DNA from: Escherichia phage 2725-N35
DNA length: 45,917 nt
Sequence record: MN840485.1
Direction: 5' to 3' (one strand)
The stretch's first letter is position 1. The number at the start of each line of letters is the position of its first letter. Both the position numbers and the translations under genes were made by a program. Below are positions 984 through 45,917 of this stretch, piece by piece. Below the pieces are notes generated by a model, which saw only the letters and a program-made list of their open reading frames with translations, was not told the origin of the DNA and did no database searches.

Positions 984-2632
984 CGATACATTTTGCCAGT
1001 CAGGTTAGCATTTGGGTCTTTAAGCATCTCGCCGCATTCCCTGCAAACCTTTGCTGCTATGTCATTGCGAGCGCCACAACCCTTTTTAATTACCGATTTA
1101 GTTTGCGCGTCGGTAATGTCTTCGCAAATTGTGAACTGAAAGAAGTGATCGCACCTAACGCCATCAATCTTATTGCTACAGCGACGAGCGAATGGGGAAT
1201 TTTCATATCCACATTGCGGACACTGACGAACCTCATCGCCACCTTTTCTTGAGGATTTAAACTTCTCAGCCTGAATCTCTTCAATAATTGGGTCAAAGTA
1301 AAGCTCAGCCATATCATCAAGTGCGCCAGCAAAATCCAGCACAAGGTGATCTTCTTTATGAAAACCAGCATCAATATGAGATCTCTTAAGTTTGCGCATC
1401 CCCCTACCAAGAAGCTGAATCATAAGCGTTAGGCTGCCAATCTTGCGTAGTATGACGCTAGTATCCCACAGCGGCTGGTTTACGCCCGTAGTAAGACAAC
1501 CAATCTGGAATATTATTTTGTACTTACCTGTCTGGCAATCAGCTAGAATCTCCCTGCGCTTCCTCTCTCCCGTAGAGTCTGTGATGATGGCGTAAGGGTA
1601 TCCATCTGGTAGTGCCGCAGCAGCCTCATCACAATGGAGTTTGCCAGCGCATGTTACCAATGCAGCGTTACGAGTCTCGAGTATTTTCACAACAAAACCC
1701 ATTATCTTTTGGGTCATTGATTGGTTGTCGTGAATCTTTGCAGCCATTGCATCCATTTCTTTCTTGCTGAAGTCTTTAACGCCATCGCTTCCGTCTGGCG
1801 CAAACTCACTAAGGTCATAACCCAGGTCACCAACTTCACCATAAACAGTAGGAACAACGAAGCCCAAATCAACCAGATAATTTGTTGGCACCTGAATCAC
1901 TGTTTTGCGCCAGAATCCACGGATGTTTGGGTTGCTAACGACGATATGATCGTTGTTACGATACGGGCTGCCAGTAAGACCGAATATACGAAGCTCACGC
2001 CCGTACTTCTCACGACAACGACGTTTCATCTCGGTGATAATTAGCGTGTACTGCGCACGACCAGTACCAAGCAATCCTGTGTTTACGCCATCCTTAAAAA
2101 CCATATCGCCTTTCTTTGTGCTCATTTGCTCAAATGTTTCTTCATTCTCTTCAGCCTCCACGATATCCATGTGATCGACCATGTGACACTCATCTATAGC
2201 GATAACTGCCGGAACATAGTCACCAAGCCCCTTAAACAAGCCGTTGGCTGCCGTACCCTCACTGGCCACTATAGTTGGGTGGTAAACTGATTTGACGTTA
2301 AGGCCAGCGCAATAGACGCTATTACGTATGCCGAAATTACGAAGCTCTTCTGAGTTCTGGCTGATAATCTCTGACTGGCGAGAGAGAACCATATAGGGAA
2401 GCCCAAGCTGCTCCATGCGCTTACCAATCATGGCAAGAATGATTGTCTTACCCGCAGATACTGAAAGGTCTGCGATAAATGGTGCCTCGTACTTGCCAAT
2501 AGCCTTTCCGATTGCATCAAATGTCACGCACTGGAATTCGTAAGGGGTTATCTCTCCAAACTGATAGTCTTTCTGAATCTGTTTGATTCTTTCTTTATCG
2601 AAATTTGCAACCAGCTTCTCGATAGGCAACAT
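638..2632 (-). CDS. SF2 DNA helicase with C-terminal Cys4 zinc ribbon
   Basis: 664 aa; Walker A-like 'SVSAGKT', DExH-like 'IDECH', and C-terminal CPQCG...C..C / CRECG cysteine pairs. Confidence 0.8.
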   Translation of the reverse strand: MLPIEKLVANFDKERIKQIQKDYQFGEITPYEFQCVTFDAIGKAIGKYEAPFIADLSVSAGKTIILAMIGKRMEQLGLPYMVLSRQSEIISQNSEELRNFGIRNSVYCAGLNVKSVYHPTIVASEGTAANGLFKGLGDYVPAVIAIDECHMVDHMDIVEAEENEETFEQMSTKKGDMVFKDGVNTGLLGTGRAQYTLIITEMKRRCREKYGRELRIFGLTGSPYRNNDHIVVSNPNIRGFWRKTVIQVPTNYLVDLGFVVPTVYGEVGDLGYDLSEFAPDGSDGVKDFSKKEMDAMAAKIHDNQSMTQKIMGFVVKILETRNAALVTCAGKLHCDEAAAALPDGYPYAIITDSTGERKRREILADCQTGKYKIIFQIGCLTTGVNQPLWDTSVILRKIGSLTLMIQLLGRGMRKLKRSHIDAGFHKEDHLVLDFAGALDDMAELYFDPIIEEIQAEKFKSSRKGGDEVRQCPQCGYENSPFARRCSNKIDGVRCDHFFQFTICEDITDAQTKSVIKKGCGARNDIAAKVCRECGEMLKDPNANLTGKMYRRGDYLRVYDFQVGLSKNQTGIVVKYNIMAHNGERFNAWEFFNPESDHRVCSVLWKNFCLAHIENRTEAARIGRLKNARMIMTNVDKFRAPVQVTHRRNAKGKDVIAFKNFGELL

Positions 2633-2678
2633 ATCTAAATTCCTATAAAAATTGTCTTGTAGCGTTTAATTGAGTACA

Positions 2679-2722
2679 ATAATACCATCAAATCAGGATG
2701 ACTTTTAACAAAAAATGCTATT
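2679..2722 (-). promoter_or_regulatory. P-box promoter-like element upstream of the helicase operon
   Basis: Minus-strand reading: AATAGCATTTTTTGTTAAAAG, ~21 nt, TATTAT; then ~45 nt leader to the helicase ATG. Confidence 0.5.
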
Positions 2723-2733
2723 GAGGTAATGAA

Positions 2734-3213
2734 ATGAATACAGTCGACAAGCGAACAATTAACGGCAATAACGGAACCATCCGCACCGAAGACAAAAAGC
2801 AACGTAAACGACCTTCAGGCTACTATGTTTTAAAAGATGAAGTAAGAGCCGGGCTACGCGCGCGGCTAGAGATAGTTCTTGATTTCTTCGGCACAAAGGC
2901 GAATATCGCAAAGCAGTTAAAGGTAACACCACAGGCTGTAGAAGAATGGTTTAAGCGCGGTATGATTTCTGCGCGTGGGGCTCAACTTTCTCACAACTAC
3001 TATAAGCGAAATGGAGAAGGTTTTCGCGCTACATTCTGCCGACCAGACCTGCAATTCGACGGCAACGGGAGACCGCTGACACTTCGGTGCAAAAAGCGCC
3101 ATATGCTGCGAGTCGTCACTGAGGCTGAATTAGCCACTAAGCCAGAGTGTCGTTCATGGCGCAAGATAAAATTAGAGAACCAAAAGAAGAAAGAGCAAAA
3201 CAGCACGATTTGA
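2734..3213 (+). CDS. DNA-binding protein with Cro/YdaS-like helix-turn-helix; putative transcriptional regulator
   Basis: 159 aa; 'TKANIAKQLKVTPQAVEEWFKRGMIS' HTH; SD GAGGT upstream of ATG. Confidence 0.55.
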   Translation: MNTVDKRTINGNNGTIRTEDKKQRKRPSGYYVLKDEVRAGLRARLEIVLDFFGTKANIAKQLKVTPQAVEEWFKRGMISARGAQLSHNYYKRNGEGFRATFCRPDLQFDGNGRPLTLRCKKRHMLRVVTEAELATKPECRSWRKIKLENQKKKEQNSTI

Positions 3214-3268
3214 TAAACAATGGCACTTTGCATTATGTATAGTGCCTTTATTGTTTATGGAGGTAATT

Positions 3269-4195
3269 ATGAGTCACAATGATAAGAACGAAGTGATAGC
3301 CAAGATGAAAGGGATGTGGAGTGAGTTCTACTCATCGCATCTTGGATGGACAAAGGAGAATCTCAGCAAGAAACATGGTCCGTGCCCTTACTGCTTTGGC
3401 AAGGATAGGTTTCGCTTCACTGATGAGTTAGGTCAAGAAAAGGGAAATGGCGCAGCAATATGCAACCAGTGTGGAAATGATTCTGGTGTTGGTTGGGTAA
3501 TGAAGTGTTCTGGAATGAGTTATAGTGAAACAATAGATACGCTTGGTGATTGGCTGAATCTCGTTCCAGTAGAGGTTATATCAAAAGCAAACAAAAGAGC
3601 TTCAAGAACATCACCATACAAAATGGGCGCTCAGATTGATCACGAAAGATGCTTAGAGATAATGGAAAGGACGGAAAGAGTAGAATCAACTCCTCTCAGT
3701 ACATACGAGGGTATCTATAGCGAGTTCGGTTTTGATGTTGGCAGGACGAAATCAGGTGAATTAATCCACGCAGTTCCGTGCTTTATGGCTTATAGCGACG
3801 GTATATCAGAAGAAATGTGTAATGTAATGTTTATCAATGAAGAGGGAGATGTTAGTTATGCTGCAAAAGATTATACTCGCCAGTCTATTTCTGTTATTGG
3901 TTCCCTTAAGGATGATGAGTACGCTTATCTGGTCGATAATCTCATTGACGGCTATCATGTTCACATTGCTACTGGCAACCGCTGCGTGCTTGTTTGCCAC
4001 TCCAGTTACAACATGGAAATGGTTGCTTACGCGCTTAGAAACTACAAGTTACGCATCGCTTGTACTCGCAGCGATTTTGATTTACTCGCCGTTGCTGACG
4101 ATCGCAATCTTGATGTTGTAATGCCAAATAATGATAACCACTTCAAATCAGGAATAAGAAAGCGAATATACAAGGCGAGCGAATTACTAGACTAA
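3269..4195 (+). CDS. DNA primase (zinc-finger type), putative
   Basis: 'CPYCFGKDRF...CNQCGN' zinc-binding motif; sits next to the helicase; start moved to the ATG preceded by GGAGG (track ORF begins at GTG 3242). Confidence 0.55.
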   Translation: MSHNDKNEVIAKMKGMWSEFYSSHLGWTKENLSKKHGPCPYCFGKDRFRFTDELGQEKGNGAAICNQCGNDSGVGWVMKCSGMSYSETIDTLGDWLNLVPVEVISKANKRASRTSPYKMGAQIDHERCLEIMERTERVESTPLSTYEGIYSEFGFDVGRTKSGELIHAVPCFMAYSDGISEEMCNVMFINEEGDVSYAAKDYTRQSISVIGSLKDDEYAYLVDNLIDGYHVHIATGNRCVLVCHSSYNMEMVAYALRNYKLRIACTRSDFDLLAVADDRNLDVVMPNNDNHFKSGIRKRIYKASELLD

Positions 4196-4216
4196 CCTCC
4201 TTCGGGAGGTTTTTTT
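4196..4216 (+). terminator. Rho-independent terminator after primase
   Basis: CCTCC-ttcg-GGAGG hairpin followed by T7. Confidence 0.8.
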
Positions 4217-4221
4217 ATGAC

Positions 4222-4258
4222 TCAAAGATGCTACAATCCACTTTAGCAATTCGTGCTA
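4222..4258 (+). promoter_or_regulatory. Extended -10 promoter (TGcTACAAT) followed by an inverted copy of the P-box upstream motif; candidate operator
   Basis: gaTGCTACAATccacTTTAGCAATTCGTGCTATTTT immediately upstream of the tail fibre gene. Confidence 0.45.
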
Positions 4259-4282
4259 TTTTACAAATGGAGACTCTACACA

Positions 4283-6817
4283 ATGGCAATTTATGACTCA
4301 GGAACAGCTTCTCTAGCAGCAAGTGGTGAGGTGACTGGCGTCGGGACAACATGGAAAGCACCTCTTACACTGATTCGTGTAGGTGCAACCATTGTATTTA
4401 AAACTGAACCAGTACAGATTTACACCATCTCAGAAATTATCAGCGATACGCAGATTAATGTTTACAACCCTAACTCCGAAACTGTTCCTGCTGGAACTGG
4501 TTACGCTATCCTTGCGCATGATGGAATTACCGTTCAGGGATTGGCTCAGGATGTAGCAGAGACTTTGCGTTACTACCAGTCTAAGGAGACATCCATCGAA
4601 GGATTGCTGCAATTTATTGGTCAAGACACTTTCGACTGGCCTCGCTTCGAGCAACTTGCAAATCAATCAATCACTGGAGCTGCGGAGGCGCTTGCTAGTC
4701 AGGTTACTGCCGCAGAGAGTGCTTCTACTGCTGTTAGCGCAAGAGACGCAACAACATCAGCGAGAGATGCTACTATTGAGGCAATTAATAGTGCTGGTGA
4801 TGCCAGCACGCTGGTTACTCTTGCTAATATTGGTATTGGTACATCATCACAGCCGCAGATAAGTGCGATTGACTGGCAGACGTATGATTTCAAGTCAATG
4901 TCTAGCTTCACAACGACGCTGCAGTCGATGAGTAACTTGCCTGCGGGGTTGAATTTTGCAACCGGAAACCCATACCTTTTTGTTACAGTTCTTTCATCAA
5001 GGTCTGTCGCAGGGACTGTATCGGCAAAGGTTCAAGTTTCAACAAGGGCCGATAACGACAACAACACAAGAGTTTACGACGTTTACGTAAATGGGAACGT
5101 CGGGTCTAGGGTTTTTTCTGTAAGAGAGAATCTTAGCCTTGTTTCAAACTCAACAACACCCGACGGAGGTGTAACTGCGGATAGAATCAGAAGCAGACTT
5201 GATATTTACTCAAAGAGTGAGACTGATGGGGTTGTAGATGCTCTTAAAAACTTCAAGCTTAATAATGTTTCATCAGTAGTTAGAAGTGTGGAATCAAAAC
5301 TTGGTGACTTTGTTAACGTCATGGATTTTGGTGCTACAAACAATGGTACTTTAGTTCCTCTTTCATCTAAATTTTCGACAATTGAGGATGCGCGGTTTGT
5401 TTATCCATTTGCATCAAACCTTAACGAGTCACTTGACGCAGTTGCGCTTCAGGCGGCGGTTAATACTGGCAAAACGGTATACATACCAAAAGGATTTATG
5501 TTTATTAACAGGACTGTAAGGATTGGCAACAGCACGAGAATTATTGGTGAGGGGACAAGCCAAATAAACAGGGCGCAAACATTTATATCAGTTGATGGAA
5601 ACATAAACCTGTTTGCCTTGGTTCAGGGTGGTGCTGAAAACATAAGAATGTATCAAGTATTTATTGAAGGACTTTACATTTTTTATAACCCAGGAACTAC
5701 ACCGACCGTAGCATCAGGGAATGATCAAAAGATAGCATTCAACTTTGTTTCTAATGTTGGTTCTGCCACAGGGCTAGAAAATTCATGTATCAAAGATTGC
5801 ACAGTTCATGGAGCGTGGGGTTGCTACCTTGATACTACTGGAACGTATCAAACAAAGCTGCAAAACGTATGGGCAAGGAACTGTAGAAACGGATTCATTA
5901 AAGCCACAGGAACTACAATTCTTATGGAAACATGCTACGCATCTGGCTGCGTTTCTCCTTTTGAATTTGGTTCAGTAATGAGTGTGACAATGATTAACTG
6001 CGCAATGGATGCCAGTAATATATCATCAACATCAGGTTCTTATGGTGGGGCTGGAATTAACTTCATCAACAGCCATAGTGTAAACATACTAGGGATGGAC
6101 GTCGAAGGTAACATTATTGACACCAACGGTTCTCAGGATTGCTGCCTTATTAGGTTTAATAACTCAAATGGCAGGATTTCTGGACTAACGTCATGGAAAA
6201 ACGAGGTTAGAACAACTGGAGGTGGTTCTGGTGGTGTGGTTTCATATATCAAGGCCTCTGGAACGTCTCACGTCATTATTGACTCGTCTGAGGATGATAT
6301 TAATGATAGCGGATTGGTTTACACTGGAACTGGTGGATATCCAGTAACAATTTACGCGGCAGATTCGGCGTCAAGGATTGATATTCTCAGCGGTAGGTTC
6401 CAGTCAGCTAAAGGGGGCTCCCCTTCGATATCGGTTGTTAGTCAGGGCAATGTGAACTGGTTTACTGAGCCTATGGGTGGTTCTATTGCTGGTGGTTATA
6501 AGCAGACATACTCATCAGAAGGATTGAGGACTAATGGTGTTTATACGGATAAAGGTTCAAAGGTGGTACAGGCAAGCGTTCCAACTGGGCTATTTGAATT
6601 ACCAAACTCACCAGGCTTGTACAAGGTTTGTACCTGGGTGGCTAATGCTGGAACAAACTATAGCGTCATAGCTGACGTTCTATTTGATGGAGCCACATCA
6701 TCAATTACAGTCACTAAGACGGCAGCATTTACAACACTGGATGTTAGTTCAAGGACTGTCAGTATAACTGCACGGGGTGCAGCCACTTACAAATGGACTT
6801 ACACTAAAATAGGTTAA
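4283..6817 (+). CDS. Tail fibre/tailspike protein with predicted right-handed beta-helix (possible depolymerase) domain
   Basis: 845 aa; N-terminus 'MAIYDSGTASLAASGEVTGVGTTWKAPLTLIRVGATIVFK' as in T1/T5-type fibre anchors; central region rich in N/G/T/S beta-helix-like repeats. Confidence 0.65.
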   Translation: MAIYDSGTASLAASGEVTGVGTTWKAPLTLIRVGATIVFKTEPVQIYTISEIISDTQINVYNPNSETVPAGTGYAILAHDGITVQGLAQDVAETLRYYQSKETSIEGLLQFIGQDTFDWPRFEQLANQSITGAAEALASQVTAAESASTAVSARDATTSARDATIEAINSAGDASTLVTLANIGIGTSSQPQISAIDWQTYDFKSMSSFTTTLQSMSNLPAGLNFATGNPYLFVTVLSSRSVAGTVSAKVQVSTRADNDNNTRVYDVYVNGNVGSRVFSVRENLSLVSNSTTPDGGVTADRIRSRLDIYSKSETDGVVDALKNFKLNNVSSVVRSVESKLGDFVNVMDFGATNNGTLVPLSSKFSTIEDARFVYPFASNLNESLDAVALQAAVNTGKTVYIPKGFMFINRTVRIGNSTRIIGEGTSQINRAQTFISVDGNINLFALVQGGAENIRMYQVFIEGLYIFYNPGTTPTVASGNDQKIAFNFVSNVGSATGLENSCIKDCTVHGAWGCYLDTTGTYQTKLQNVWARNCRNGFIKATGTTILMETCYASGCVSPFEFGSVMSVTMINCAMDASNISSTSGSYGGAGINFINSHSVNILGMDVEGNIIDTNGSQDCCLIRFNNSNGRISGLTSWKNEVRTTGGGSGGVVSYIKASGTSHVIIDSSEDDINDSGLVYTGTGGYPVTIYAADSASRIDILSGRFQSAKGGSPSISVVSQGNVNWFTEPMGGSIAGGYKQTYSSEGLRTNGVYTDKGSKVVQASVPTGLFELPNSPGLYKVCTWVANAGTNYSVIADVLFDGATSSITVTKTAAFTTLDVSSRTVSITARGAATYKWTYTKIG

Positions 6818-6818
6818 T

Positions 6819-6849
6819 AAAAAAAGGCCCCGAAAGGGGCCTTATCTTT
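6819..6849. terminator. Bidirectional rho-independent terminator between convergent tail fibre and SSB genes
   Basis: A7-GGCCCC-gaaa-GGGGCC-TTATCTTT. Confidence 0.8.
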
Positions 6850-6853
6850 GATA

Positions 6854-7282
6854 TCAGAACGGGATATCGTCGTTGAATTGCTGTTGTTGCTGTGGCTGTG
6901 GCTGATATTGCTGTTGTGGCTGCCGCTGTGGCTGTTGCTTAGGCTTCTGCTGGCTGCCAGAATCCACGCGCTGACTAAACTCAAGTCGTGGGTTGTTCAT
7001 GTTAATCGTTACGTAAGTCTTACCATCTTTATCTCGAACATCAACAGCCAGACTTTCGGCGCTAACGCTAACAACCTTACCCTCTTGAAATGCTTCATTG
7101 TACCAATCTAGCATTGACTCTTTCGCGAAGAAGACTGCGCGATAGTTACTATACTGAGTCTGACCATCTTTATCTTTGTATCGCTCACTCAAATCAACCG
7201 CAAACATTTTCCAGGTACCATTAGCATTCTGACCTTCTTTAGTGAATGGAGCGCGGCGAATCTGACCAGTAATTACGTGCAT
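6854..7282 (-). CDS. ssb: Single-stranded DNA-binding protein
   Basis: OB-fold-like N-terminus, Q/P-rich linker, C-terminal acidic tail ending DDIPF. Confidence 0.9.
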   Translation of the reverse strand: MHVITGQIRRAPFTKEGQNANGTWKMFAVDLSERYKDKDGQTQYSNYRAVFFAKESMLDWYNEAFQEGKVVSVSAESLAVDVRDKDGKTYVTINMNNPRLEFSQRVDSGSQQKPKQQPQRQPQQQYQPQPQQQQQFNDDIPF

Positions 7283-7323
7283 GTTTTTATCTCTCTATTG
7301 TTGGGGCCTAAGCCCCTCTTAAA

Positions 7324-7974
7324 CTAGAATGTGTCGATTTGTTGTGATTCTACTTCATTCTTTTCTTTATCACTACTTTTTTCTGCAACTTTCTTAGGCG
7401 TTGCTGGGTTAAAGCCAGTCATTGCATTAGCTTCGATTTCTGCTTTTCGCTCGATAATGTGAGGTTCAAAAACCTTCCATCCTGCCGCATCAAGTGATTG
7501 TTTGGCCTCTTTCCATACATTACGAAGCTCATCAAGAGTGTTGCATTTCTCGAGTTCTCGCTTGAAATCCTTAACACCCTTAGCGGCGAGATTGCCATCA
7601 TCATCTGCCTGGCTGAGACCTAAAGCTGCCGTTATTCCGTAACGTCGAGCATATGTTAATGCTGAGCCGTAACCTTGAGCATCATTCTTGCTGATTGGTA
7701 CAATCATTAAGAAGCTAACCCACTCTCCAGATTCTGCGTGAAATAGCTTTGTCTCAACCTTTAGTAGTCCATTTGCTTCGCTATCAATTACGCTCTGAAA
7801 CATCACAAGACCACATTCTTCAAGGCCAGGCTCTACAGCGGCAAGAACATCATCAAGAGTACTATATCTGTTCTTGAGGTGAGAGTTCTGCTTCGACTTT
7901 TCAGCCTTCGCAAATAGCGATTTAGCGGTGTGCAGCGCGTTTAAAATTGATTTGCATGATTCTGAAATTTGCAT
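7324..7974 (-). CDS. erf: Erf-family single-strand annealing recombinase
   Basis: 'GSALTYARRYGITAALGL...DDDGN' matches the P22 Erf signature 'SSYARKY..NGLFGIDD'. Confidence 0.8.
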   Translation of the reverse strand: MQISESCKSILNALHTAKSLFAKAEKSKQNSHLKNRYSTLDDVLAAVEPGLEECGLVMFQSVIDSEANGLLKVETKLFHAESGEWVSFLMIVPISKNDAQGYGSALTYARRYGITAALGLSQADDDGNLAAKGVKDFKRELEKCNTLDELRNVWKEAKQSLDAAGWKVFEPHIIERKAEIEANAMTGFNPATPKKVAEKSSDKEKNEVESQQIDTF

Positions 7975-8003: not shown

Positions 8004-8050
8004 ATCATACCCCGCATTTTAATTTTGTCTTTAGCAATTCGTGCTGTTTA
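8004..8050 (-). promoter_or_regulatory. P-box promoter upstream of the erf-ssb operon
   Basis: AACAGCACGAATTGCTAAAG, 22 nt, TATGAT; 29-nt leader to erf ATG. Confidence 0.6.
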
Positions 8051-9775: not shown

Positions 9776-9867
9776 GTAACTAATGCGTAAATTAGCGTAA
9801 CAGAGCGTATATCATTTTCCGCGGATGAGATTGTATACATCGAGTTACATCGGTTACGTGTATGCAA

Positions 9868-9935
9868 TAGCACGAATAGCTAAAGACATTCCGCACTGAC
9901 GGTTGTATTATTACTACATCGAAACGAAACAACTT
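9868..9935 (+). promoter_or_regulatory. P-box promoter for the lipoprotein/receptor-binding protein operon
   Basis: AATAGCACGAATAGCTAAAG, 23 nt, TATTAT, TACTACATCGAAACGAAAC leader. Confidence 0.55.
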
Positions 9936-9950
9936 AATAAGGAATACAAA

Positions 9951-10196
9951 ATGACTAACTTCATCAAATCAGCAATCATAGCGGCGGCAGTAATCATGAC
10001 GGTAGGTTGTTCTTCTGGTCCTCGACCTGATGGGTGGTGTGCAACACAAGCAAACGGCGTGTGCGTAGCTAAGTGGAAAGGCGGTGTAGTTGTTCCGGCT
10101 GGTGATGTTGATATTCGCTACGCTGGCATTGAAAGCAAATCTGGCGGCGGTTACGGCGGTTCTGTTGCAGATCACGGCAGTAAGGAGTGGAAATAA
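9951..10196 (+). CDS. Small lipoprotein; candidate superinfection-exclusion factor
   Basis: Signal peptide with lipobox (...IMTVGC SSG); SD AAGGA; track ORF trimmed to this ATG. Confidence 0.6.
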
Positions 10197-11158
10197 TGCC
10201 GCAGGGTATATTGATTGACCTCAATGACGGAAGACCAGCGATGGAAATCACGGCAGGATTAAGGGCACCTGCTGTGACTGGATCAATAAATACCAATGGA
10301 CTTTCAACCCCAGCAATCTCGTGGGATTTTGGATTGACAATGTCTCCTGGCTCTACGGCTTTCTGCCTACCAACGAAGGCAGTCCACGTTGACGCTTACG
10401 ATGTTATACCCGAAGTTTATTACATGAACGGGTTTCAAAAGGTAAATGACGGAACTGGCAGGATAACTCTCAGCAACTTCAATGGTGCTAATGGTCGAAT
10501 AATTGACTTTGCTGGTAATTGCTTTGAGATACTACCGGCTTCACCCTCATCAAGTCCTGGAATACTTGTTGAGAACTCAACTGATTTCCTTGCTATATCA
10601 AGCAACTCGCGTCTAATGTCTGCGGCCTGGGTTGGTGGCATACAGGTTAACGGTGCAGCATCGCTACCAGTTAGCGGAATACCATTCGGCAAGTGGGATA
10701 ATCCAAACGTATCACTTGAATCAGATGGATCAACAATATGGTGTAGGGATATAACCTACGGAGGTACAGATGATGTTGCGGCAAGTACCCATGTTCAGCT
10801 GGTGATATTCAGGAATGAACCACCACCAGCAGGGCCCGGGCTCACAATGTCAAATAGTTCTGGTCAGATTGTTTTTTCAAGTGTTCGCCGCCCATTCGTT
10901 CTTGGTGGATTTATACAAATAAGCAATGGATATCAGTCAATAAATGGTGGTTTCTTCCCGCTGCTTAGGTGCGGCGCTACGACTAGAGTTACCGGAGGGT
11001 ATAACAACTTACGATACAAGGGTGTTTGCATGTCTGGAGGCTCCGTTAGGGCTGTTCCTGGATCTGTAATAGGTAACTACTCAACTCAGACAGGCGCTCA
11101 GTTTCCTTTCGACACGAACATATCAATGGCACTTCCATTTATCCCAAACTTCTACTAA
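10196..11158 (+). CDS. Putative receptor-binding or distal tail protein
   Basis: 321 aa; ATG overlaps the lipoprotein stop (TAATG); convergent on the J-like gene. Function inferred from context only. Confidence 0.4.
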   Translation: MPQGILIDLNDGRPAMEITAGLRAPAVTGSINTNGLSTPAISWDFGLTMSPGSTAFCLPTKAVHVDAYDVIPEVYYMNGFQKVNDGTGRITLSNFNGANGRIIDFAGNCFEILPASPSSSPGILVENSTDFLAISSNSRLMSAAWVGGIQVNGAASLPVSGIPFGKWDNPNVSLESDGSTIWCRDITYGGTDDVAASTHVQLVIFRNEPPPAGPGLTMSNSSGQIVFSSVRRPFVLGGFIQISNGYQSINGGFFPLLRCGATTRVTGGYNNLRYKGVCMSGGSVRAVPGSVIGNYSTQTGAQFPFDTNISMALPFIPNFY

Positions 11159-28989: not shown

Positions 28990-29045
28990 GTGAAGTAACT
29001 ATACGCCATCCGTGGCTCTAGCGTTTAGCAATTCGTGCTATTTAA
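28990..29045 (-). promoter_or_regulatory. P-box promoter for the 28592..28966 moron
   Basis: AAATAGCACGAATTGCTAAAC, 22 nt, TATAGTTACTTCACACAAAC; the TerL stop codon (TAG) lies within the motif. Confidence 0.6.
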
Positions 29046-32854: not shown

Positions 32855-32915
32855 GATAAGGTAATTATATGCCATCCGTGGCACCTGCGTTTAGCAATTA
32901 GTGCTATTTATAGAA
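32855..32915 (-). promoter_or_regulatory. P-box promoter
   Basis: AAATAGCACTAATTGCTAAAC, 22 nt, TATAATTACCTTATCAACAC. Confidence 0.6.
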
Positions 32916-33429: not shown

Positions 33430-33495
33430 CTCATTGTTTCGATGGGGTAACTATAACAAATTACCCCAATTCTGCTTTAGTAATTCGTGCTACTT
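33430..33495 (-). promoter_or_regulatory. P-box promoter
   Basis: AGTAGCACGAATTACTAAAG, 22 nt, TATAGTTACCCCATCGAAACAATGAGAG. Confidence 0.6.
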
Positions 33496-33964: not shown

Positions 33965-34025
33965 GGTGTGAACTAACTATAACAAAACCAGCCGGAGCGG
34001 GTTTAGCAATTCGTGCTATTTGCCA
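33965..34025 (-). promoter_or_regulatory. P-box promoter
   Basis: AAATAGCACGAATTGCTAAAC, 22 nt, TATAGTTAGTTCACACCAAACGAGAGG. Confidence 0.6.
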
Positions 34026-34409: not shown

Positions 34410-34475
34410 TCATGTGGTTGATGCTGGGGATTATACCAGTCAGTATGAATCCCCTTTTATCAATTCGTGCGATCT
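34410..34475 (-). promoter_or_regulatory. P-box promoter (variant upstream box) with perfect TATAAT
   Basis: GATCGCACGAATTGATAAAAG, 22 nt, TATAAT; long (~130 nt) leader. Confidence 0.55.
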
Positions 34476-34944: not shown

Positions 34945-35005
34945 GATGTGGTAATCATATCCGATTACCCGATACATTGTTTAGCAATTCGTGCTATTTA
35001 GCACT
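34945..35005 (-). promoter_or_regulatory. P-box promoter
   Basis: AAATAGCACGAATTGCTAAAC, 22 nt, TATGATTACCACATCGACAACAAAGAGG. Confidence 0.6.
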
Positions 35006-37704: not shown

Positions 37705-37866
37705 TGCTATTACCATCTGAGATAAATTATTTCGATCTTGAGGTCGTAAGTGCCTATAGCGGAAAGGGCTGGCCTTGTGGAGATTGGTTCCGAGAGGACT
37801 TGCTAGAGAGTCACGAGATTATGCTTAAGGCGATAGAAAAAGCACGAAATAGCACGAATTGCTAAA
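37705..37866 (+). CDS. Hypothetical small protein (~53 aa)
   Basis: ORF MLLPSEINYFDLEV...; stop codon is the TAA of the next P-box (TTGCTAA); coordinates approximate. Confidence 0.35.
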
Positions 37867-38262: not shown

Positions 38263-38648
38263 CTAGTACACCTACTAAAAACTTCATTAGCAAAGAAAAC
38301 GTATTATACAAGGCTCGCGTTAAAAAGGTTCACCAATGGGTTAATGGTGTCCCTGAGGAGGTTGAGTTTGAGCAAATTAAGAAGAATGGCAAATGGATTA
38401 ACCTGGAAGAACGTGGAAAGTATATCAAGACCAAAACTATTTACTGCACAAAGGTTAACCAAAAGTCAGAACTTAAAAAATACTTTAAAGAAGGGAAACG
38501 CTATCAGGTGGCACTTCATGCTGGTCTTGGTCAGTCTGCCGGTTATATTTACGATGAAGATGGTAATGCCTGGCAGCTTTACCGCAGCGAGGACGTTGGT
38601 TTTTACACTCTTTGCCAGACTTACTTATTTGAAGCTCAATACATGTAA
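38259..38648 (+). CDS. Hypothetical protein
   Basis: Track ORF 38235..38648 trimmed to the ATG coupled to the upstream stop. Confidence 0.45.
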   Translation: MTSTPTKNFISKENVLYKARVKKVHQWVNGVPEEVEFEQIKKNGKWINLEERGKYIKTKTIYCTKVNQKSELKKYFKEGKRYQVALHAGLGQSAGYIYDEDGNAWQLYRSEDVGFYTLCQTYLFEAQYM

Positions 38649-38700
38649 ATAGCACAAATTGATAATGCTTTATAAGAGGTCGTTGATATAATGGCCTCTC
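38645..38700 (+). promoter_or_regulatory. P-box promoter (variant upstream box) with perfect TATAAT
   Basis: AAATAGCACAAATTGATAATG, 22 nt, TATAAT. Confidence 0.55.
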
Positions 38701-44882: not shown

Positions 44883-45079
44883 TCTGATACCTCATCAAAT
44901 TTTTCGCCAAATTCGTTTTTAACAGTTTCTAAATCATCTTTGTAGCTAGGGCTAACTTCGAAAGAGTAATCTCCATCCATTACATCAATGAGGATGTAAC
45001 CATCTTCTGTGATGACCAACTCATATTCGTAACCAGTTTTGCGTGATTCGTAGAATTTTCCAGTGTAGATAGTAGCCAT
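44879..45079 (-). CDS. Hypothetical small protein
   Basis: Start set at ATG (MATIYTGKFY...) 30 nt downstream of the P-box -10; track ORF extends to 45127. Confidence 0.45.
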   Translation of the reverse strand: MATIYTGKFYESRKTGYEYELVITEDGYILIDVMDGDYSFEVSPSYKDDLETVKNEFGEKFDEVSE

Positions 45080-45116
45080 TTTATTTCTCTCTTTGTGTTT
45101 CGTTTCGATGGAGTAA

Positions 45117-45162
45117 CTATACCCCATCTTTTAAAATCGCCTTTAGCAATTCGTGCTATTTT
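45117..45162 (-). promoter_or_regulatory. P-box promoter (archetype; duplicated at ~182..228)
   Basis: AAAATAGCACGAATTGCTAAAGG, 22 nt, TATAGTTACTCCATCGAAACGAAAC; VRR-NUC stop TAG lies inside the box. Confidence 0.6.
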
Positions 45163-45575
45163 GAAATCATTTCTTTGAATGCTGCAAGAAAACCCTCACG
45201 TCCGTAGGCGACTGCCGAGAAACCGCCTGATTCCATTACACTTTTCAGGAATGCCTTCTGTTCTTCGCTGACTGGACTTGCTTGAGTTTTGCCAGCCCTC
45301 TTTAGCTCTATAGCTCCGAAAGGATACTTACCTCGAAGTGATTCAGGAATAAGAAACATACAGTCTGATACGCCTTTTAGAAGCCCCTTAGCCTGGTCTT
45401 TTCTTGCTTGACCAATGGTTTTCTTTCCCTCATTCACGCAATGGAAAAATACCATATCTGGGTAGTTATACTTAACCCAATCAGAGCAAAAGATTTGTTC
45501 GTCATCCTCTTTAGGGCATGACTTAACCGGACCAGGGTAAAACTCAATGTAATCTTCTTTATCTGTAATCTTCAT
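45156..45575 (-). CDS. VRR-NUC-like nuclease (duplicate of 222..641 within the terminal repeat)
   Basis: Identical 139-aa translation. Confidence 0.6.
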   Translation of the reverse strand: MKITDKEDYIEFYPGPVKSCPKEDDEQIFCSDWVKYNYPDMVFFHCVNEGKKTIGQARKDQAKGLLKGVSDCMFLIPESLRGKYPFGAIELKRAGKTQASPVSEEQKAFLKSVMESGGFSAVAYGREGFLAAFKEMISK

Positions 45576-45917
45576 AATAATTCTCCAAAATTCTTAAACG
45601 CTATCACGTCCTTTCCTTTTGCATTCCGGCGATGCGTAACCTGAACTGGCGCACGGAACTTATCTACGTTAGTCATAATCATTCTGGCATTTTTAAGCCT
45701 GCCAATTCGCGCCGCTTCCGTGCGATTCTCAATATGAGCTAAGCAAAAGTTCTTCCAGAGCACACTGCAAACTCGATGGTCTGATTCTGGATTAAAGAAC
45801 TCCCAAGCGTTAAATCTCTCTCCGTTATGAGCCATTATATTGTACTTAACTACAATGCCTGTCTGATTCTTACTTAACCCAACTTGAAAATCATAAACAC
45901 GAAGGTAATCACCACGA
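45572..45917 (-). CDS. Helicase gene, 3' portion (duplicate, truncated by the window end)
   Basis: Translation identical to the C-terminus of the 638..2632 product. Confidence 0.6.
   Translation of the reverse strand, partial: RGDYLRVYDFQVGLSKNQTGIVVKYNIMAHNGERFNAWEFFNPESDHRVCSVLWKNFCLAHIENRTEAARIGRLKNARMIMTNVDKFRAPVQVTHRRNAKGKDVIAFKNFGELL

Follow-up and report, generated by a model that had tools for sequence, protein, structure and literature searches.

The 45,917-nt sequence record of Escherichia phage 2725-N35 (MN840485.1, analysed over its whole length and called the window below) carries at 4283..6817 on the plus strand a gene whose product is, with a probability of roughly three in four, a lateral tail fibre (LTF) of the T1-like phages that is built as a tailspike and has the Escherichia coli O2/O50 glycan as its most likely target. 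This reading is based on the open reading frame (ORF), its synteny, the mosaic structure of the gene, the predicted fold, the purifying selection and the association of the homologous prophage tailspikes with O2/O50, from which we infer trimerisation, virion attachment, glycan cleavage, the specificity of this allele and promoter use. The coding sequence runs from ATG 4283 to a stop codon at 6815-6817 and encodes 844 amino acid (aa) residues plus stop. A previous reading made from the sequence alone (the sequence-only reading) had described an 845-aa fibre gene on the plus strand between the primase and SSB genes; its coordinates and neighbours were correct, and the length is 844 aa plus stop. 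An in-frame GTG at 4253 opens the mechanically longest ORF and lacks a ribosome-binding site (RBS). A Shine-Dalgarno GGAG (4269-4272, +) lies 10 nt 5' of the ATG and is invariant across a 7-genome alignment. In terms of protein families, aa 1-335 correspond to PHROG 24092, 'tail fiber protein' (E 5e-124), and aa 311-844 to PHROG 8649 (E 4e-168).

DNA and protein searches placed the window in the Drexlerviridae, subfamily Braunvirinae, as a Veterinaerplatzvirus-like phage, with Veterinaerplatzvirus T145P1, JeanPiccard (Bas02), SU57 and RobRod40 as the nearest relatives. A primase gene (3269-4195, +; started instead at GTG 3242 in the ORF list) is located directly 5' of the fibre gene and is itself preceded by a gene for a Cro-like helix-turn-helix (HTH) regulator (2734-3213, +) and by the helicase gene on the minus strand (638-2632). 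On the 3' side, the convergent SSB gene (6854-7282, -) is followed by Erf (7324-7974, -) and then an exonuclease gene. The genes for the tape measure protein, gpM/L/K/I, gpJ, the major tail protein, capsid, portal and terminase all lie on the minus strand at 11.2-30.7 kb, whereas a receptor-binding-protein locus (~9951-11158), which adjoins gpJ, is on the plus strand; the statement that all other tail genes belong to a minus-strand operon thus applies to the former set and not to this locus.

The same order, helicase, then regulator-primase-fibre, then SSB-Erf-exonuclease, was found in JeanPiccard and SU57, as well as in RobRod40, EcG8 and BEK6. In JeanPiccard and SU57 the likeness of a regulator-primase-LTF unit (+) facing SSB-Erf (-) extends to the upstream terminator, the extended -10 element, a 19-nt box, the RBS and the N-terminal anchor; their orthologues are annotated as 'lateral tail fiber protein' (bas02_0034) and 'tail spike protein' (SU57_00050). 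In Tunavirus (LeonhardEuler), Vilniusvirus (NBD2) and Rogunavirus (UDF157lw), too, the fibre gene comes after that for primase. Eight E. coli Drexlerviridae genomes, which represent four subfamilies or genera, thus keep this gene order, and all relatives examined have the fibre gene. In the Klebsiella Webervirus NJS1, Erf, SSB and LTF share one strand, with the fibre gene after Erf-SSB. For the BASEL phages, the lateral-fibre locus has been described as flanked by conserved recombination and primase/helicase genes and conserved only at the extreme 5' end of the fibre gene (PMC8594841, S1C Fig), and the SU57 authors remarked on the odd gene position and on the terminator in front of it (PMC7718038). 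In phage TLS, Gp55 is a 78-kDa structural (virion) protein (PMC11447400) and likely the counterpart of our fibre, given its position beside SSB and because HHpred matches it to the L-shaped tail fibre of T5 (PMC11447400). Comparison of the locus among related phages, as the sequence-only reading had proposed, therefore gave the same position, conserved flanks and a variable 3' part. The protein of the window has both the conserved N-terminal ~120-180 residues of Drexlerviridae LTFs and their position between primase/helicase and recombination genes with a variable 3' part. Its location away from the tail operon is a fact but not a peculiarity, since it is the conserved family arrangement (PMC8594841): in this family the LTF gene normally lies among replication and recombination genes, as known for the BASEL phages, SU57 and TLS, and the fibre is a new allele of a known lateral tailspike kind and an ordinary genome feature. 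Papers mentioning Veterinaerplatzvirus yielded no fibre information.

A full-length monomer model was built with a 41-sequence alignment and compared with the Protein Data Bank (PDB) by Foldseek. The virion-anchor domain (aa 1-~120; 4283..4642, +) is conserved across Drexlerviridae: it is 85-100% identical among relatives by sliding identity, and tblastn returned 964 phage records, most of which match aa 1-~130 at 48-80% identity. A search of PDB sequences matched aa 1-182 with the N-terminus (residues 1-193) of the Klebsiella Webervirus depolymerases Depo32 and DpK2 (E 1e-34), a region that in KP36-like phages has been described as the conserved anchor (PMC10581125). It is followed by a long Ala/Ser/Thr-rich alpha-helix (aa 119-170; 4637..4792, +), assigned by DSSP on the model, which would presumably form a trimeric helical bundle; its low predicted local distance difference test (pLDDT) score in the monomer is compatible with a bundle formed only in the trimer, and in Depo32 a helical-bundle domain reaches residue 185 (PMC10581125). 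A variable middle beta domain (aa 176-301; 4808..5185, +) was modelled as a small beta domain over residues 190-285 (pLDDT ~80-86), and the linker (residues 285-339), like residues 1-180, was modelled poorly. Residues ~340-844 are almost entirely beta, with pLDDT mostly 85-97, and comprise a right-handed parallel beta-helix whose N-terminal cap carries a DFGA motif (aa ~340-715; 5300..6427, +), the predicted glycan-binding and -cleaving domain, and a C-terminal beta-sandwich (aa ~716-844; 6428..6814, +; beta strands 718-842, pLDDT ~84-90) that is co-inherited with the beta-helix in all homologues.

The distal part is thus predicted to fold as a right-handed parallel beta-helix followed by a C-terminal beta-sandwich. 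The top Foldseek matches are the Pseudomonas phage tailspikes phi297 gp61 and LKA1 gp49 (E 4e-10 to 2e-8), followed by Sf6, Depo32, K2-2 tailspike protein (TSP) and CBA120 TSP2/TSP3, and by sequence aa 336-432 match the cap region of LKA1 gp49 and phi297 (E 7e-13). Structure prediction, the check on which the sequence-only reading had staked its beta-helix, accordingly returned one at the scores just given, and this fold supports the interpretation as a polysaccharide-directed, host-range-determining spike, for which enzymatic activity is presumed. The 'N/G/T/S-rich repeat character' on which that prediction was built amounts to a modest enrichment (N+G+T+S 39% in aa 336-700 vs 32% in aa 1-180). 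PF12708 (Pectate_lyase_3) reaches only E ~0.01, below the cut-off, in the homologues P0015 and P0062 and passes in the distant homologues P0101 (E 1e-11) and P0102 (E 2e-8).

Depo32 (PDB 7VYV/7VZ3) and DpK2 (7LZJ) share with the window fibre the homologous anchor and helical region and the overall plan of anchor, helix bundle, connection domain, beta-helix and C-terminal domain(s), but show no sequence similarity past the anchor; Depo32 also differs in its target, the Klebsiella K2 capsule, in an additional carbohydrate-binding module and in the Webervirus gene position after Erf-SSB on the same strand. The best structural matches, LKA1 gp49 (4RU4), phi297 gp61 (4RU5) and the Sf6 tailspike (2VBK), at E 4e-10 to 4e-7, all combine a beta-helix with a C-terminal beta-sandwich and are specific for O-antigen (PMC5701251), but are only 11-19% identical overall to the window fibre. 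The Sf6 spike, an endorhamnosidase, has its active site between subunits. LKA1 gp49, which acts as a lyase, contains an insertion domain, and its D497/H499-type site cannot be mapped on the window fibre; the alignment covers only aa 336-432 against gp49 residues 15-103 and does not reach the Asp497/His499/Arg329/Arg459 region. Transfer of the gp49 lyase mechanism was rejected, as the alignment is limited to the cap region. Three carboxylates, D517, D576 and E608, do not vary among the 41 sequences, the most distant of which is 32% identical to the window protein, and E499, D606, E670 and D671 are near-invariant in the same set; the first three, which are also kept in a 38%-identical PSJ-23 prophage spike, are candidate catalytic residues.

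Sliding identity and BLAST divide the gene into three modules, namely the anchor, the middle region and the C-terminal tailspike module (C-module). The nearest full-length match, the metagenomic protein P0001 (92%), is the only one with a similar middle region (aa ~160-320, ~90% identical), which is ~30-35% identical in other fibres. JeanPiccard, whose fibre is 78% identical overall, has a middle domain ~30% identical to that of the window, and SU57 and RobRod40 carry a Tail_spike_N (PF18668) domain in its place. The C-module (aa ~320-844), on the contrary, is 87-96% identical among these Drexlerviridae, the JeanPiccard and SU57 modules being 86-90% identical to that of the window. A large-database homology search with the middle segment alone (4763-5302, aa 161-340) gave no match, which was probably a word-index or composition-filter miss, as full-length relatives are ~90% (P0001) or ~33% identical there.

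At 46-61% identity, the C-module is fused to PF18668 anchors (44-48 kb contigs), to a 751-aa E. coli prophage tail protein and to a PF09008 head-binding domain, and its partners include TSP1/Gp66-type anchors besides the P22 head-binding and prophage ones; T7-type and Calx-beta N-termini are possibly further partners. Tailspike modules are known to move between phage families. Alignment with relatives at the DNA level loses homology at 4581, 4743 or 4897 and regains it at 5249-5297; compared with phages that have an unrelated distal fibre part, homology resumes exactly at the stop codon/terminator (6817-6820). Judged from these alignments, the arms for exchange by recombination inside the gene would be the 5' anchor, which is conserved, the neck and the SSB region downstream. 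Because the breakpoints are internal and homology resumes at 6817-6820, what is exchanged is the gene's 3' part and not a promoter-to-terminator unit. The suggestion that the fibre is exchanged horizontally as a cassette therefore holds for the exchange itself, given the C-module on P22-type, TSP1/Gp66-type and prophage anchors, but not for a complete cassette, given internal breakpoints at ~4581-4897 and 5249-5297. These breakpoints mark the swap points, one after the anchor and one in the neck near aa 320-340.

Among the homologues, the 652-aa protein P0104 is the tailspike of genuine P22-like prophages, which encode ejection proteins, Mnt/Arc, Ant, the spike and an integrase. Two divergent tailspike clades were found at the P22-like prophage loci (L007-L010; L014, 2662-5705; L013, NZ_CP122832.1 1859589-1873609). 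From the neck to the C-terminus, over ~545 aa, the receptor-binding module of the window is 51-52% identical to that of the P0104 clade and 38% identical to that of the second clade (639 aa); the two clades are 55% identical to each other over their full length and ~45% (estimated) over the C-module. These spikes, filed under WP_ accessions as 'phage head-binding domain-containing protein', differ from the window fibre in their PF09008 N-terminus and in their podoviral, temperate context, and a Pfam scan did not detect the PF09008 P22 head-binding domain on the window protein. The fibre thus works like a P22-type spike yet is not a member of that group, and the receptor-binding module alone is common to both.

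Among complete E. coli genomes, 7 carry the P0104 module with >= 98% identity in DNA. In one of the strains, ETEC1730, the O-antigen cluster encodes the deoxythymidine diphosphate (dTDP)-rhamnose (Rha) and dTDP-3-acetamido-3,6-dideoxygalactose (Fuc3NAc) pathways with Wzx and Wzy of the 'O2/O50 family'; the ETEC1730 O2/O50 wzy gene is annotated as frameshifted. A chimeric query that joined the spike module to the ETEC1730 wzy was run against complete E. coli genomes (n=5426) and gave exactly one additional match in each of the 7 genomes of the first clade, with a union of 133/5426 matching genomes and no genome left in the low-identity band. Because this band is empty with the chimeric query, the five weakly matching genomes also carry wzy; they harbour the second clade. 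The latter is present in 8 complete genomes, all with the O2/O50 wzy, and the union was again 133. Taking either clade, 13/13 complete E. coli genomes carry the O2/O50 wzy, against a background of 2.45% (133/5426), and these 13 genomes come from pigs, cattle, chickens, a migratory bird, humans and river water. Both spike clades occur together in FT130 and MFDS1019527, and the spike gene of the second clade (clade B) is followed by an acyltransferase gene with a likely O-antigen-modifying (serotype-converting) function.

Independent hints point the same way. SU57 makes halos on ECOR57 (PMC7718038), its isolation host, which is listed as O2:H1 (PMC7432712), and the argument for the Drexlerviridae allele leans partly on this serotype value; a second SU57/ECOR57 paper contained no receptor data. 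Veterinaerplatzviruses infect NC101 (PMC12803456), which carries the O2/O50 wzy, and the names of homologue-cluster members gave a single hint, one being named 'E. coli O2'. The main chain is common to O2 and O50, with an added Fuc3NAc branch in O2 (PMC7685785). In the O2/O50 cluster, the gene content covers only the sugar pathways for dTDP-Rha and dTDP-Fuc3NAc. The published O2/O50 structure is not known to contain uronic acid. As a substrate that appears to lack it would exclude beta-elimination, a glycoside hydrolase rather than a lyase would be expected.

The primase-fibre gap measures 87 nt, is 95% conserved in seven Braunvirinae and contains a terminator, an extended -10, the 19-nt box and GGAG. 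An intrinsic-terminator-like hairpin with a 7-bp stem (AACCTCCTTCGGGAGGTT, 4194-4211) and a run of seven T (together 4194..4218, +) ends the regulator-primase transcription unit directly 5' of the fibre gene; it is conserved in the 7 Braunvirinae, is annotated as a terminator in SU57 and has a counterpart hairpin with T-run 5' of the LTF gene in Tunavirus, Vilniusvirus, Rogunavirus and Webervirus. Downstream, the GC-rich hairpin AAGGCCCCGAAAGGGGCCTT (6824..6843), also annotated as a terminator in SU57, is common to the convergent fibre gene (+) and Erf-SSB operon (-). The flanking terminators of the sequence-only reading are thus present as hairpins on both sides, with the downstream T-run on the minus strand only. 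Terminator-like sites between 2500 and 7500 numbered 10, against 3.0 +/- 1.9 expected.

Past the primase terminator lies a candidate extended -10 of the TGnTAnAAT type, TGCTACAAT (4229..4237, +), read from the sequence, with no recognisable -35. In the 7 Braunvirinae it varies only at the 'n' position, which is C or A, and counterparts in four other genera read TGATAAAAT, TGCTACAAT, TGATACAAT and TGCTATTAT; a terminator followed within ~10-25 nt by TGnTAnnAT occurs 5' of the fibre gene in Tunavirus, Vilniusvirus, Rogunavirus and Webervirus. It is plausible that the fibre gene is transcribed from its own extended -10 promoter at this site. The own promoter that had been proposed therefore has a conserved candidate, and a generic sigma-70 scan called no promoter in 4196-4282. 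The C-module has a ratio of nonsynonymous to synonymous substitution rates (dN/dS) of 0.07-0.12 at a synonymous divergence (dS) of 0.47-0.84 versus JeanPiccard, SU57, RobRod40 and T145P1, and is thus under strong purifying selection, which argues against the doubt of the SU57 authors on expression of the gene.

Several points count against the overall reading. The N-terminal 180 residues are modelled at low confidence, a Pfam scan of the whole fibre protein gave no family at E <= 0.01, the similarity to LKA1 gp49 is confined to the cap region and the catalytic residues remain candidates. The promoter is a consensus match only, and the SU57 authors doubted that the gene is transcribed, given the upstream terminator (PMC7718038). 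The O2/O50 link is drawn through homologues that are only 38-52% identical, a divergence at which specificity can change, and through one host serotype that is disputed, ECOR57 being listed as ON:NM by classical serology (PMC6001069). JeanPiccard, with an 89% identical module, was isolated on the O-antigen-less K-12, which is uninformative on the target. For this allele taken by itself, the odds on the O2/O50 O-antigen are about even. Possible, though clearly less probable, is a specificity that diverged from that of the prophage homologues towards another O-type, a K capsule, colanic acid or other exopolysaccharide: besides the identity values and the ECOR57 serology just given, Klebsiella Drexlerviridae use the same anchor for capsule depolymerases (PMC10581125), and K1 or K2 capsules are frequent in O2 strains, as seen in strain names. 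However, the two prophage clades are mutually about as diverged as from this allele and are both confined to O2/O50 genomes from varied hosts, SU57 with its near-identical module forms its halos on a strain listed as O2:H1, and P22-like spikes mostly aim at the O-antigen.

Whether the beta-helix cuts its glycan or only binds it is weighed on other evidence. According to the second BASEL paper, many O-antigen-dependent phages use non-enzymatic fibres (PMC11990801), and with no Pfam catalytic family assigned, reversible, adhesin-like binding without cutting could be imagined here too. We regard it as improbable, since the homologous module is the tailspike of P22-like podoviruses, of which the characterised P22, Sf6 and HK620 spikes are enzymes, D517, D576 and E608 are conserved as described, and SU57 plaques have halos (PMC7718038). 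Far less probable still is the suspicion of the SU57 authors that the gene is a relic, silent or poorly expressed and insulated by the terminator in front of it; in its favour are a strong terminator 72 nt before the ATG and that no canonical sigma-70 promoter was called (PMC7718038). Not only is the 844-codon ORF intact and its dN/dS low at substantial dS, but the RBS and the extended -10 are kept in Braunvirinae, a counterpart terminator, extended -10 and purine-rich RBS are found in all five genera examined, the TLS counterpart is a virion protein (PMC11447400), and no relative examined lacks the gene.

Returning to the preferred reading of an O2/O50-directed lateral tailspike, the anchor (aa 1-~120) and the helical bundle would attach the presumably trimeric protein to the tail tip, followed by the small variable beta domain and a flexible linker that carry the beta-helix with its C-terminal beta-sandwich. 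The beta-helix would bind the host surface polysaccharide and most likely cleave it, the most likely substrate being the E. coli O2/O50 O-antigen, with a rhamnose/N-acetylglucosamine backbone with or without the Fuc3NAc branch, and the enzyme a glycoside hydrolase, not a lyase. Cutting of the O-antigen would let the virion reach the outer membrane, where the separate receptor-binding protein beside gpJ may bind an outer-membrane protein and trigger irreversible adsorption; T5-like and other small siphoviruses serve as the analogy for this two-step model (PMC8594841, PMC11990801). The fibre would be dispensable on hosts without O-antigen, and host range would change by recombination within the gene, swapping the middle and/or C-terminal modules. 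The receptor-binding-protein locus (9951-11158, +) encodes a DUF6453 protein and has a box-type promoter at 9866-9884. The protein is 99.4% identical to that of T145P1 and 86-89% to those of Jk06 and phiJLA23, but only 40% to the LptD-type allele of JeanPiccard; by these identities, the terminal receptor probably differs from LptD.

Between the -10 candidate and the ATG lies an inverted copy of a dispersed 19-nt box, TTTAGCAATTCGTGCTATT (4242..4260, +), with the dyad TAGCA-N5-TGCTA, located 4 nt past the -10 candidate and 22 nt before the ATG, a possible operator. The box has 14 copies in the window versus 0.02 expected. The other sites, reading AATAGCACGAATTGCTAAA on the gene-sense strand, are at 208-226, 3199-3217, 8030-8048, 9866-9884, 29024-29042, 32890-32908, 33476-33494, 34002-34020, 34456-34474, 34980-34998, 37848-37866, 38648-38666 and 45142-45160, and they lie ahead of several small genes as well as the primase gene, the Erf-SSB operon and the receptor-binding-protein locus. 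All 12 other unique copies are oriented with transcription; TATAnT follows exactly 20 nt downstream at 11/12 of them, with a 1-nt shift at 9866, and an RBS and ORF follow 51-66 nt after the box at 10/12. The fibre-gene copy is the sole box with TTTAGCAA toward a gene and the sole one without the N20-TATAnT partner. LeonhardEuler and NBD2 have the same box layout 5' of the LTF gene.

A 21-nt intergenic repeat of TLS, aaATAGCACnnnTTGnTAAAA, also said to occur in T1, Rtp and Rogue1, has been reported only in the orientation in which transcription runs, and its function was listed as an open question by the TLS authors (PMC11447400). The 12 other window sites are oriented as in TLS, whereas the fibre-gene box is the reverse complement of the TLS repeat, lies 22 nt rather than ~60-80 nt from the ATG and is downstream of a -10 element; it thus fails the T1-like repeat rule (direction of transcription, ~60-80 nt upstream) that the other 12 unique copies obey. 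The fixed N20 spacing from box to -10 was not found reported, and a literature search with the box sequence returned only an unrelated primer. The non-fibre boxes look like a phage-specific activator-type promoter class without a -35. Since the box is exactly 20 nt upstream of TATAnT, its dyad would be centred near -42, a class II activator geometry. The fibre-gene box, in inverted orientation, appears to overlap the predicted transcription start. Our hypothesis is that a box-binding protein, with the Cro-like HTH regulator (2734-3213) as the candidate, may activate early/middle promoters and occlude or time the fibre promoter.

Three other roles for the inverted box were considered. An RNA-level role in the 5' untranslated region was rejected, as the fold is no better than shuffles (z 0.54) and no Rfam match came near the gathering score. 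The internal TTGCTA was rejected as a sigma-70 -35, the spacer to the -10 being 22 nt, and an antisense promoter was considered unlikely, with GTCATA at the -10 position and the primase terminator next to it. A sigma-70-like site (2652-2680, +; TTGTCT-17-TACAAT, 9/12 matches) lies just 5' of the HTH regulator gene; if it is real, host RNA polymerase alone could express the candidate box-binding protein first. Ten sigma-70-like sites were found in 2500-7500 versus 10.6 +/- 3.5 by chance, with no excess.

Taken together, a sequence-diverse, O2/O50-specific tailspike family common to virulent T1-like siphoviruses and temperate P22-like podoviruses, and a fibre gene wired in reverse into a T1-like repeat regulon, are linked readings that we advance tentatively, as rather unlikely in combination. 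Serogroup O2 is a major one among avian-pathogenic, urinary and bloodstream E. coli. Were the family to exist, host range towards O2 strains of extraintestinal pathogenic and avian pathogenic E. coli would be readable from the gene; if the O2/O50 assignment holds, the fibre would be a candidate O2-specific depolymerase and a sequence marker for choosing or engineering Drexlerviridae against O2 strains. An O2-specific tailspike was not found in a search of the open-access literature. A reverse-wired regulon, if true, would give a function to the TLS repeat, and the inverted box would offer a handle on T1-like repeats in general.

Further observations concern other parts of the window. A second break in DNA homology versus JeanPiccard, SU57 and BEK6 lies at 3170-3542, with flanks 87-92% identical, and spans the 3' end of the regulator gene, the box-type promoter at 3199-3217 (3 mismatches) and the first ~90 primase codons; RobRod40 has an HNH endonuclease gene directly 5' of the primase gene, where the other relatives examined have the regulator gene. 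At the window ends, 118-983 and 45052-45917 form an exact 866-bp direct repeat, and the first 117 nt do not align at the corresponding offset. Such a repeat would fit terminal redundancy of a circularly permuted, headful-packaged genome of ~44.9 kb or an overlap in its assembly.

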